A DNA stretch of 64,000 nucleotides from an uncultured Verrucomicrobiota bacterium (lineage in GTDB: Bacteria; Verrucomicrobiota; Kiritimatiellia; CAIQIC01; Lenti-01). Positions 15,001 to 18,000 of the stretch are shown here, one piece after another; the first letter of the stretch is position 1, and each line of letters starts with the position of its first letter. The stretch spans positions 4,173-68,172 of the forward strand of contig CALKWZ010000031.1 in NCBI GenBank assembly GCA_938003985.1. The letters run 5' to 3'. Made by a program: the position numbers.

Positions 15001-18000
15001 TCGCCTGCAACGGGAAAGCCGCCGACGTCGAGCCCCTGAAGGCGCGCTGGGAAGAGGCGCTGGCGGAAGTCAACCGGGAGGTCAACGACGGCATCCCGTG
15101 CATCGTCGCCGTCGGCACCGCGTTCGCCGAGAAACCCTACGATTTCGCCGACCTGATGAAAATCGCCGACGCGCGCATGTACGAGGACAAGCGCCGCAAG
15201 AAGAAACCCGGCGAAGAAATCCGCTGATCGTTTTTTTCGCGTTTTTTCCCGATTTTTTTCGGTCCGGAAGTTGAAATTCCCGATTCCTGCCGTAGGCTAC
15301 GGGTGGAGCTCGGCGGAAGTGTTGGGATGGCCAGCCGCCCGAGGAAAGAGCGCGAAGGATGCGATGATGGGCTGGTCTCCGCTGAGCTCCCAATTGCGTT
15401 ATTGGGGCCGACAATTCGCCCAGCGTTCTATTGGGCGTCGCCTTCGACCGCGGCGCCCTTTTGCTTGAGATACTGGACCGTCCGCACCCGGCCCGACGTC
15501 GACGCCTTCAGCAGCACCGATTCGCCTTTGCCGTCCTTGGCGTTGAGGTCCGCCCCCTGCTCCACCAGATATTTCACGACGTCCAGGTTCCGGACCGCCC
15601 GCATCAGCGGCGTCTCCCCGGCGGCGTTCCGCGCATTCACGTCCGCGCCTGTCTCCACGAGCAGCCGGACCACGGGCAACTGATCGACCCACGCGGCCTT
15701 CATCAACGGCGTTTCGCCCTGATCGTCCCGGGCGTTCGCGTCCGCGCCCTGCGCCAGGAGATACCGGACGCTTTCCGGATCGGACACCATGTACATCAGC
15801 GGCGTCCGACCATAGGCGTCCCGGGCATCGACGTCCGTTCCCTTCAGCAGGAACGCCTTCACCGCGGTCAGATCGCCCTTGTTCGCGGCCTTGTGGATCG
15901 TCATGCAGCCCGCCGAGCACGCCAGCGCCGCCGCCATCAACCCCAATCGAATGGTTTTGTTCATCGCGCGCCTGCTTTCTTTCGCTGCTCTTTCCCTTGG
16001 GTGTAGGTTCCCAAATCGCCCGGCTCCCGGTCAAGGAACGATTGGCCGCGCGCCCGCGGTAGTCGCGTCCGGCCACTCGGACTAGTTCGTCGCCCCGCCG
16101 ATCCCCCACGCGCCCTTGCCGGCGGCGCGCGCGGTCTCCTCCAGCGATTTCAGCCGCTCCACTTCGTCCCAAGTCTTGCCGCCGATGCCCATGCCGTGGA
16201 TGCGGGCCAGTCCGTTCGCCACGAGCGTTTCGGCCAAGTCCCGCCCCCCCGCGGTCACGATGCCGTACTTGCGGGTCGAGCGTTCGTTGCCGAATACGCC
16301 CTGCCAGCGGGTCCGGATCTCGAACCCGTTTCTGAGGAATTTTCGCGTGAAGGCCTTGGCCATCCTGCCCACCTCCACCGCCTGGGCCTCCGAAATGCCG
16401 AAATAGGCCGCCTGCGCCCGGATACGGTCGCGAAACCGCAGATCCGACTCAGGCGCGTCGGTGAAGTACAGCCGCACCGTCAGTTCGCCGCCGTTCCAAT
16501 GGACCCGAAATGAATCGCCGTCGTTGCCCGGATATTCGACCATCCGGCAGTCATCCAGCGTTTGCCAAGGCTTGGCCGCCAGGGCAGACGGCACCTCAAG
16601 CCAACCCGACACCCACAGGACCACCCCAAGGAGGATGCCGCCGCCCAACTTATAAAAATTATGTGTATGATAATCTAAATTCATTCCAGCAGATGAGGAT
16701 ATGCAACAGACGGCAACACACACCGCATTGTTATACAATAAGCTGATTGTCCGGGATCGCAAGGCAAATCGGATCGCGCATCCGAATGACCGCGAATGGG
16801 TTCCATCCCATGCCGCCATTAATCTATCCATAATATCATAGCTGGTCGCGTGCTCTGCCCGGCGCCGAAACGAAGCCGCCATGTGTTCCTTGGCAAAGAG
16901 GCGCCCCTTACCGCGATTCTTCAAGCGCGCAACCGCCACCCCAACATTGATTTTTGGCGAATTTTCCGTCACCGTTCGGGCGTGAGCATCAGCCGGCATT
17001 TCCACGGATGGACGACGCCGTCGCTTCCGGCCGCCGTGGACGTCCTGACGCGGAACTGGCGCGGCGTCGGTCCGCTGGATCTGCGCGGTTGCCTGATCGT
17101 GGTGCCGACGCGCCACGCGGGCCGCCGCCTGCGCGCGGAACTCGCCCGGACCGCCGCCGCCCGCGGGACCGCCGTCCTCGCGGGCTCCATCGTCACGCCG
17201 GAACATCTGGTGCCCATGCCGCCCGAGGCAGCCGACGACGCGCTGGTCCTGGCCCTGCTGGCCAAACGGCTGGTGGCGCAACGCGACCAGCTCGGCGCCC
17301 TGTTTCCCGCGACGGACGTCGCGTGGGATTTTCCGTTCGCGCTGGGTCTCGCCGCGCAACTGCAAGACGTCCGCCGCCAATTGTCCGAAGCCGACCGCGC
17401 CCCCGCCGACTTGCTGCCGCTGGTGCCCGACGAGGAACGCGCGCGCTGGACGGCCATCGCCCAGCTCGAAAAGGGATTGCTGCAGGACGTCGCCCGCCTA
17501 GGAAAAAATGATCCGCTCGCCGCCCGCCGGGAAGCGGCGCGACAACCACCCGACGTTTCCCATACCCGCGTGATCGCGCTTTTCGTGCCGGATTTTTCCG
17601 CGCTGGCGGTCCGCCGCCTGCAAGCGGCGGCGCAAAGCAGTTCGGTCGAAATCCACGTCTTGGCACCCGAATCGGAAGCGGACCGCTTCGACGACTGGGG
17701 CCGGCCGCTGCCGGACCGCTGGGAAAACGAACCGCTGCCGCTGGCCGAACGCCACATCCACGTCTTCGAGCAGGCACCGGACGAGACCGACGCGCTGGCG
17801 GCGATGCTGGCCGAAGCGGAGCAGGCCGGCCGCGCCTTGGCGGTCTGCACGCCGGATCCCGGCAACGCCCAGGCCTTGGCCCGGCGGTTGCAGATCGACG
17901 GCCGGACGCTCTTCCTCCCCAACGGAGTGCCGCTGGCGCAGACCGCGCCGGGCCGGCTGCTGGCCGCCTGGCTCGCGCTTCGGCGCCGCCGAGACTACGC

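Follow-up and report, generated by a model that had tools for sequence, protein, structure and literature searches.

Reduced mRNA structure and reduced G+C (GC) content at translation initiation sites represent a general trend, which becomes stronger with genomic GC content (Gu, Zhou & Wilke 2010, PMC2816680). Other phenomena described to date include start-codon turnover with N-terminal extension by capture of the 5′ untranslated region (UTR), sigma70 promoters with operator palindromes at extracellular nuclease genes, and the staphylococcal nuclease or thermonuclease (YncB-like) family, PF00565. Leaderless mRNAs are common in Actinobacteria and Deinococcus, and mis-extended open reading frames (ORFs) are typical of high-GC genomes. 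The subject of this analysis is an AT-rich island at positions 16640-16860 of a 64,000-nt stretch (the window) of contig CALKWZ010000031.1, from an uncultured bacterium of the Kiritimatiellia (Verrucomicrobiota). The island lies between two divergent nuclease genes, an SNase-like gene on the minus strand and an AddB-like gene on the plus strand, and it combines four known things, namely a low-structure GC trough, a non-consensus promoter with palindromes, start-codon turnover and a mis-extended neighbouring ORF. With a probability of about 0.72, it serves only the SNase-like gene, as a cis-acting control region comprising promoter, leader and low-structure start, into which the start codon has shifted, with AddB being controlled separately. 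Read from upstream to downstream, the order of elements would be a distal patch, two palindromes, a sigma70-type promoter, a leader of ~44 nt and the AT-rich initiation region (Table 1).

The island is ordinary in kind, and represents a well-supported case of the micro-evolution of a start codon. As in the initiation regions of GC-rich genomes, a GC trough coincides with a near-zero fold at the start codon. However, the SNase start is more extreme than the norm of its own genome (14% against a median of 50%), and half of its low-GC coding tract consists of recruited leader and not of synonymous codon choice, which departs from the trend described by Gu et al. (PMC2816680). As in other cases of start-codon turnover, one ATG gave way to another, in frame and 18 nt upstream, but here the shift falls inside the N-terminal segment of a signal peptide, which is tolerant of extra residues. 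The TTGnGn-16-TAnnGT arrangement with palindromes at approximately -40 to -80 resembles that of sigma70 promoters at extracellular nuclease genes, though the candidate shares only 8 of 12 positions with the Escherichia coli consensus and is predicted from sequence. AddB has, as leaderless genes do, a -10 element 6 nt before its GTG and no Shine-Dalgarno (SD) sequence, a prediction made from conservation only. The SNase-like domain lies above the Pfam threshold with a low score (30 bits).

Table 1. Positions of the features in and around the AT-rich island (window coordinates)
Feature	Position	Strand	Basis
SNase-like gene (thermonuclease/YncB-type), 200 aa	16082..16684	-	PF00565
Predicted N-terminal signal peptide, MNLDYHTHNFYK-LGGGILLGVVLWVSGWLEVPSALA/AKPWQTL	SNase N-terminus	-	judged by eye
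SNase codons 1-12, 17% GC, AT-richest core of the island	16649..16684	-	alignments A3, A5
Predicted 5′ untranslated leader of SNase mRNA, ~44 nt, no correctly spaced SD	16685..16728	-	position of conserved -10
Candidate SNase promoter: -35 TTGCGA (16762-16757), 16-nt spacer, -10 TATTGT (16740-16735)	16735..16762	-	inside conserved block GCTTATTGTATAAC
Palindrome TCGGAT-GCGCG-ATCCGA directly 5′ of -35, candidate regulator site	16769..16785		scan: hairpin then T-run
Palindrome GGATGG-AAC-CCATTC, second candidate operator	16794..16808		conserved in window, L021, L115, L107; partly L103
Distal AT-rich patch TTAATCTATCCATAATATCATAG, ~90-115 nt 5′ of predicted SNase transcription start	16815..16845		composition
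0.86-kb unit (SNase coding sequence and whole upstream region with island), present or absent in close relatives	~16080..16938		L008, L009
Spurious 44-codon AddB extension, non-coding spacer	16850..16981	+	GC3, indels, absence in relatives
AddB promoter-like signals: -35 TTGATT (16947-16952), 17-nt spacer, -10 CACCGT (16970-16975)	16947..16975	+	conservation
AddB-like PD-(D/E)XK nuclease gene, 897 aa, corrected start	16982..19675	+	homologues, GC3, upstream conservation

The window has a mean GC content of 68.2%, and that of 16640-16860 is 46.6%. The lowest value for any 221-nt stretch of the window was found at 16626-16846 (45.7%), the 100-nt minimum at 16648-16747 (34%) and the 60-nt minimum at 16647-16706 (26.7%), the second-lowest 60-nt stretch (42819-42878) having 31.7%. 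The existence of an AT-rich island between divergent nuclease genes, as originally predicted, was therefore confirmed at all three lengths. Starts were compared among 52 genes called by the GC content of third codon positions (GC3) alone, of which 51 starts were usable. The lowest 36-nt GC content near the start was 14% for SNase and 31% for the next gene, with a median of 50%. As the SNase start is an outlier among these 51 starts and the island holds the minima of the window, the trough far exceeds both chance and the usual intergenic dip. GC1, GC2 and GC3 of SNase codons 1-12 were 0.25, 0.08 and 0.17, respectively, compared with a GC3 of 0.87 in codons 61-200. The earlier description of AT-rich opening codons in both genes is accordingly correct for SNase and overstated for AddB, where 16850-16981 has 60% GC and a GC3 of 0.64, and is non-coding-like.

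The SNase-like product was found to match PF00565 with 30.1 bits (cut-off 21) over residues 69-193. Its homologues (n = 174), which the sources name ‘thermonuclease family protein’ or ‘endonuclease YncB’, nearly all possess a signal-peptide-like N-terminus ending in ...AxA-AKPWQTL. A protein identical to that of the window is called on 18 public contigs, and both the SNase and the AddB proteins have identical counterparts on GCA_036743915.1, a metagenome-assembled genome of the Kiritimatiellia, as well as on further metagenome contigs. Loci for comparison (numbered with the prefix L) were obtained from a genome scan with AddB, which gave 15 related loci, and from look-ups of SNase homologues, which gave further loci in context. 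Among the sequences recovered by a metagenome scan with the SNase alignment, most of them relatives in other phyla at 36-51% identity, L023 alone was used in the upstream comparison. This comparison comprised nine sequences (the window, L021, L115, L107, L103, L104, L111, L023 and L116). Alignment A3 holds seven of the upstream regions and alignment A5 adds L115 and L116.

Codons 1-6 of the SNase gene (16667-16684) align with the 5′ leader of the relatives, and codons 7-12 (16649-16666) with their first six codons. In both A3 and A5, ATATG occupies one shared column and provides the start codon in six of the nine sequences. The remaining three have lost this ATG, the column reading ACA in the window (codon 7) and AAG in L021 and L115, and these same three possess a new in-frame ATG (GGAATGAA) 18 nt upstream. 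At the position of the new ATG, L107 has AGG (inside GGAAGGAAT), L103 and L104 have ATT, L111 and L023 have ATA, and L116 has AGA. The window and L107 are collinear, with zero indels over 60 nt covering both start positions, so that the offset is 18 nt. All relatives have a very AT-rich leader, as in L107, where AATAATGATAATAAT precedes the ATG. In L115 an in-frame stop is located 8 codons 5′ of the new ATG, making a start further upstream impossible in that lineage. The ancestral start codon was thus placed 18 nt further downstream, as it is in six relatives today. The lineage to which the window, L021 and L115 belong acquired a new in-frame ATG within the AT-rich leader, and the old one decayed. 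With the start moved six codons upstream, AT-rich leader was captured as coding sequence, and the first 12 codons would now be composed of six former leader codons followed by six AT-rich codons of the charged, K/R-rich n-region of the signal peptide.

The N-termini of the shifted lineages read MNLDYHTHNFYK in the window, MKIDNYKFYINK in L021 and MNMYNCKNYINR in L115. Between the window and L021, 11 of the 36 nt of codons 1-12 differ and all nine changed codons alter the amino acid, compared with an amino-acid identity of ~95% for the two proteins outside these codons. The GC content of codons 1-12 is 14-17% in all three lineages, and the tract appears, from these alignments, to be conserved in composition and not in sequence. 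The leader of L107, the closest unshifted relative, contains a near-perfect palindrome CCTCCGCCGGCGGAAGG (L107:535-579) which would sequester an SD-like GGAAGGA. The corresponding site of the window is CCTCATCTGCTGGAATG, and it holds the new start codon. A mechanically called ORF of 432 aa (16082-17380, minus strand), which continues the SNase frame antisense into AddB, was rejected as coding. The 271-codon frame 5′ of the SNase ATG is closed by stops 8 codons upstream in L115, 19 in L103 and L104 and 4 in L111, and the nucleotide blocks underlying it are still conserved in these four loci.

A folding energy of only -3.4 kcal/mol was predicted for the region from -20 to +30 around the SNase ATG, whereas 50-nt background stretches of the window average -15.9 ± 5.2 (SD, standard deviation) kcal/mol; of the 1320 stretches compared, only 0.7% fold as weakly. 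Shine-Dalgarno sequences are the rule in this genome, with 29 of the 52 predicted starts having one (background rate, 17%), but none is suitably spaced from the SNase start. Given the near-absent fold and the missing Shine-Dalgarno sequence, the tract is read as an unstructured ribosome-loading region, which would compensate for the latter. It would keep the start codon open to the ribosome in a transcript of 68% GC. The sequence of the tract changes rapidly between lineages, its GC content staying at 14-17%. Slow, rare codons, which can aid the export of secreted proteins, could also contribute at the SNase start. As a tentative extension, the 36-60 nt tract (14-27% GC) may be a composition-selected ‘landing pad’ which replaces the Shine-Dalgarno sequence and enables the start to migrate, and which forms, together with the palindromes, a control module for a secreted nuclease beside the break-repair genes AddAB. 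If this proposal were true, extracellular DNA degradation would possibly be coupled to DNA-damage or nutrient signals.

Upstream of the start, T16762, T16761 and G16760 as well as T16740, A16739, G16736 and T16735 were found to be invariant in the seven upstream regions of A3, and L115 and L116 share the same TTG and TAnnGT (A5). A block consisting of GATTyGnCTTGyG, ~16 nt and GCyTA(TT/GG)GT is common to all nine sequences. In L111, L023 and L116, where the neighbour of SNase is not AddB, it takes the form TTGTGT-16-TAGGGT. The retention of the block in the absence of an AddB neighbour argues that the island is the own control region of SNase. The GCTTATTGTATAACAATG block has a single occurrence in the window. 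On the strength of this conservation, TTGnGn-16-TAnnGT is suggested to be the SNase promoter, of sigma70 type and non-consensus, with transcription predicted to start at ~16728. A consensus promoter scan of 16000-17500 on both strands with a threshold of 9/12 returned zero sites, and the SNase promoter, at 8/12, falls below this threshold and is for that reason absent from the output.

The two palindromes listed in Table 1 are possible operators or regulator binding sites, judging by their position and conservation. Half-site TTGGATGCGCGA of the promoter-proximal palindrome is retained in the window and in L021, L115, L107, L103 and L104. No further copies of either palindrome or of the -10 block (a test for a regulon) were found in the window, and a by-eye look for resemblance to LexA, Pho or DnaA boxes gave no convincing match. 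A terminator scan of 16000-17500 returned one terminator-like hairpin, at chance level. The distal patch has a 60-nt GC minimum of 45% at 16784-16843. It is shared with L021 and L115, as a perfect palindrome (CCATAA-TG-TTATGG) in these two, whereas L107, L103 and L104 do not conserve it. The spacers between AddB and SNase in L103 (L103:2680-2800) and L104 (L104:1935-2055) hold AT-rich motifs of their own, ACGTAAAAACTTT and TTACGTAG occurring twice each, with no counterpart in the window.

Some points weigh against the assignment of the island to SNase control with a shifted start. The candidate promoter TTGCGA-16-TATTGT matches only 8 of 12 positions of the E. coli consensus, and the distal patch at 16815-16845 is given no role. 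Mutation bias or neutral drift may be what keeps the tract AT-rich, and the shifted start is present in only three lineages. Furthermore, a composition-based (GC3) caller selects TTG 16648, which is codon 13, as the SNase start, and this TTG is common to the window, L021, L115 and L107. The last point leads to the alternative that the AT-rich codons are untranslated, with 16649-16684 still being leader and the island consisting of promoter and leader only. The 12 codons do evolve like an amino-acid sequence free of constraint, and the public gene call in L115 omits the whole tract (L115:3001-3462), shortening SNase to Met48. However, all three lineages without the ancestral ATG retain an in-frame ATG at one and the same new position, and their 12 AT-rich codons hold zero stops or indels. 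Initiation at TTG 16648, which is not preceded by a Shine-Dalgarno sequence, would give a signal peptide without a charged N-terminal segment (MGGGILLG...), where the homologues are K/R-rich. In addition, the equivalent codon is GTG in L103 and ATG in L104, and the upstream ATG is used nonetheless. A start at TTG 16648 is consequently considered unlikely, although it deserves serious consideration.

The AddB-like product matches PF12705 (PDDEXK_1) with 107.7 bits over the C-terminal residues 672-916, and the next gene downstream encodes an AddA-like protein of 1058 aa with UvrD-helicase, UvrD_C and PDDEXK_1 domains. Doubt had been cast on the AddB start at 16850, and this doubt proved justified. 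Most of the homologues (n = 92) are 896-906 aa long, covering 95% of the 941-aa query, and most begin with M(S/T)(I/L)(S/T)RHFHGW, the first codon of which corresponds to 16982 and is often ATG. Upstream-extended gene calls were seen only in homologues with GTG at this codon. The 44 extra codons have a GC3 of 0.64 compared with 0.86 in AddB, and their frame is broken by indels of -1 and +2 relative to L021. In L008 and L009 the sequence to the left of ~16938 is missing and AddB is intact. The composition-based start caller also selects 16982, and the 897-aa form occurs in one public gene call from the same species, in which 941 aa is called as well. By these comparisons, the AddB start is GTG 16982 and not 16850.

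A start at 16850 would also lie 5′ of AddB's own promoter-like signals. TTG 16947-49, T16952, A16971, T16975 and the TG of the start codon are invariant columns of the upstream block 16947-16984 in 16 AddB loci, down to a protein identity of 53%. Only 6 nt separate the end of the -10 element from the GTG, and no Shine-Dalgarno sequence lies upstream, from which a leaderless mRNA beginning with GUG is predicted; the AddB mRNA is thus probably leaderless. The conserved spacing suggests that the AddB promoter, with a -35 and -10 of its own, lies outside the island. This bears on the proposal that the island is a strong bidirectional sigma70 promoter or UP-element shared by SNase and AddB. The genes are indeed divergent, the spacer is AT-rich, and the TATAAT/TAATAT-like hexamers of the original prediction are present, in the form of TAATAT/CATAAT-like sequences at 16829-16836 (TAATAT being 16831-16836). 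However, no -35/-10 pair passed the scan thresholds on either strand, and the patch holding the hexamers (16815-16845) is not conserved in L107, L103 and L104. The AddB block has its own TTG...A...T at -35/-10 spacing, 6 nt from the GTG, in 16 loci. L008 and L009, moreover, lack the island and retain AddB with its 42-nt upstream block intact, and as the island was deleted together with SNase while the AddB block stayed, the island is not that of AddB. A promoter function therefore stands for SNase in part of the island, and a shared bidirectional promoter is very unlikely.

The segment missing from L008 and L009 extends from just 5′ of the SNase stop codon through the coding sequence and the 255 nt upstream of it. 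In both loci, the AddB promoter block follows almost immediately on the sequence that lies 5′ of the ankyrin-repeat (Ank) gene, with a gap between the flanking blastn alignments of 57 nt in L008 (2907-2964) and 15 nt in L009 (2940-2955). Direct repeats of 7-8 nt are located at the borders of the unit (CCGGCCAC at 16069-76 and CCGCCAC at 16933-39). An extra local duplication of ~20 nt is present at the junction in L008. The divergent SNase-AddB pair was identified in L021, L107, L115, L104-106 and L103, the last of which has a different other SNase neighbour. In a neighbour-joining tree of AddB (1.8 kb), the topology ((win,L009),(L103,L104)) received 98% bootstrap, with SNase being present in the window, L103 and L104. 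As L009 is nested within SNase-carrying lineages, its lack of the unit is most parsimoniously ascribed to loss and not to gain in the window. The absence from L008 and L009 is most likely a single deletion, and the pairing of SNase with AddB is, on this phylogenetic evidence, ancestral in the clade. An insertion in the lineage of the window was the initial reading and was rejected on the basis of the AddB tree and the SNase-AddB pairs of the relatives.

A remnant of horizontally acquired DNA had also been suggested, and was considered here in the form of a remnant or boundary of lower-GC DNA which carried SNase. The 0.86-kb unit is patchy among close relatives, distant SNase homologues occur in other genomic contexts, and recombination in the region is indicated by the mosaic structure of L021. 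Against this, the body of SNase is host-like (GC3 0.87, compared with 0.86 in AddB), and low GC is limited to ~200 nt of regulatory sequence and start region. The pair in L103, L104, L107, L115 and L021 shows divergence like that of the flanking genes, and L009 is nested as described. No mobility genes (integrase or transposase), tRNA or long terminal repeats were found at the borders of the unit, where the neighbours are GGDEF, Ank and AddB/AddA and the only repeat is that of 7-8 nt. The nearest tRNAs are located at ~34.3 kb (ARAGORN, the same two as with Rfam), and a repeat search of 15900-17100 for terminal or target-site repeats returned short, low-identity pairs only. An inverted pair at 16666-16685 and 16821-16840 (20 nt, 70%) was judged to be due to chance in AT-rich DNA. 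With the pairing ancestral and the absence most readily seen as a deletion, the suggestion was not upheld and a horizontal origin is regarded as highly improbable.

Compared with the window (13951-22657), L021 has ~90% identity across GGDEF, Ank, SNase and the first ~270 nt of AddB, and ~75% identity over the remainder of AddB and AddA. It groups with L009 in the Ank tree (93%) and with L010 in the AddB tree (86%). This pattern suggests that lineages have exchanged DNA by homologous recombination, the putative breakpoint lying near 17250-17400.

A role for the conserved upstream block at the RNA level, either as a structured leader (riboswitch, thermosensor or attenuator) or as a small RNA, with the AT-rich tract in an expression platform, was suggested by a hairpin followed by a T-run on the SNase-sense strand (16785-16769), by the L107 palindrome covering GGAAGGA and by some stem positions which differ by G-U wobble among the lineages. 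However, no Rfam match was obtained for the whole window at the gathering threshold, or for 16550-17050 at E<=1, other than two distant tRNAs. RNAalifold on the nine sequences (222 columns) returned -5.6 kcal/mol, the covariation term being +0.36, which is no support, and the hairpins, lying 5′ of the conserved -35/-10, are probably not transcribed; there is accordingly little to recommend an RNA element. An equally faint prospect is that the island, as the AT-richest DNA in 64 kb, serves as the binding site of an AT-preferring nucleoid-associated or silencing protein, for its AT-richness is centred on the translation start and the -10 and is covered by a simpler explanation.

Assignment of the island to SNase results in two corrected gene models from uncultured Kiritimatiellia, as AddB has 897 aa and not 941, and the N-terminus of SNase is real and recently remodelled. 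Composition-based gene callers err in both directions at such islands, having extended AddB into the spacer and truncated the SNase of L115 to M48. The locus offers a clean, alignable example of a start codon migrating into an AT-rich leader, by which leader becomes coding sequence. In a phylum without promoter data, it also supplies the first candidates for promoter signals, at two genes of which one is probably leaderless. The understanding of such systems is left unchanged by these findings.

Some further observations were made outside the island. An SNase homologue located ~420 kb from AddB was identified on the 560-kb contig of L017 (L113:2312-3561), in a more distant genome that carries a Verrucomicrobia label. 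It lies directly 3′ of an SOS-response-associated peptidase (SRAP) gene, with stop and start overlapping, in an operon with no AT-rich start. Approximately 80 nt located 5′ of the Ank gene (15965-16045; minus strand, ATG at 15964), TTGACC among them, are near-invariant in the window, L021, L008 and L009, and probably represent the Ank promoter, to judge from their conservation. The second AT-richest spot of the window, at 42787-43007 (48% GC per 221 nt and 31.7% per 60 nt), adjoins the 5′ end of a minus-strand gene (start at 42812) and contains TTATCCATCTATC at ~43004-43016.

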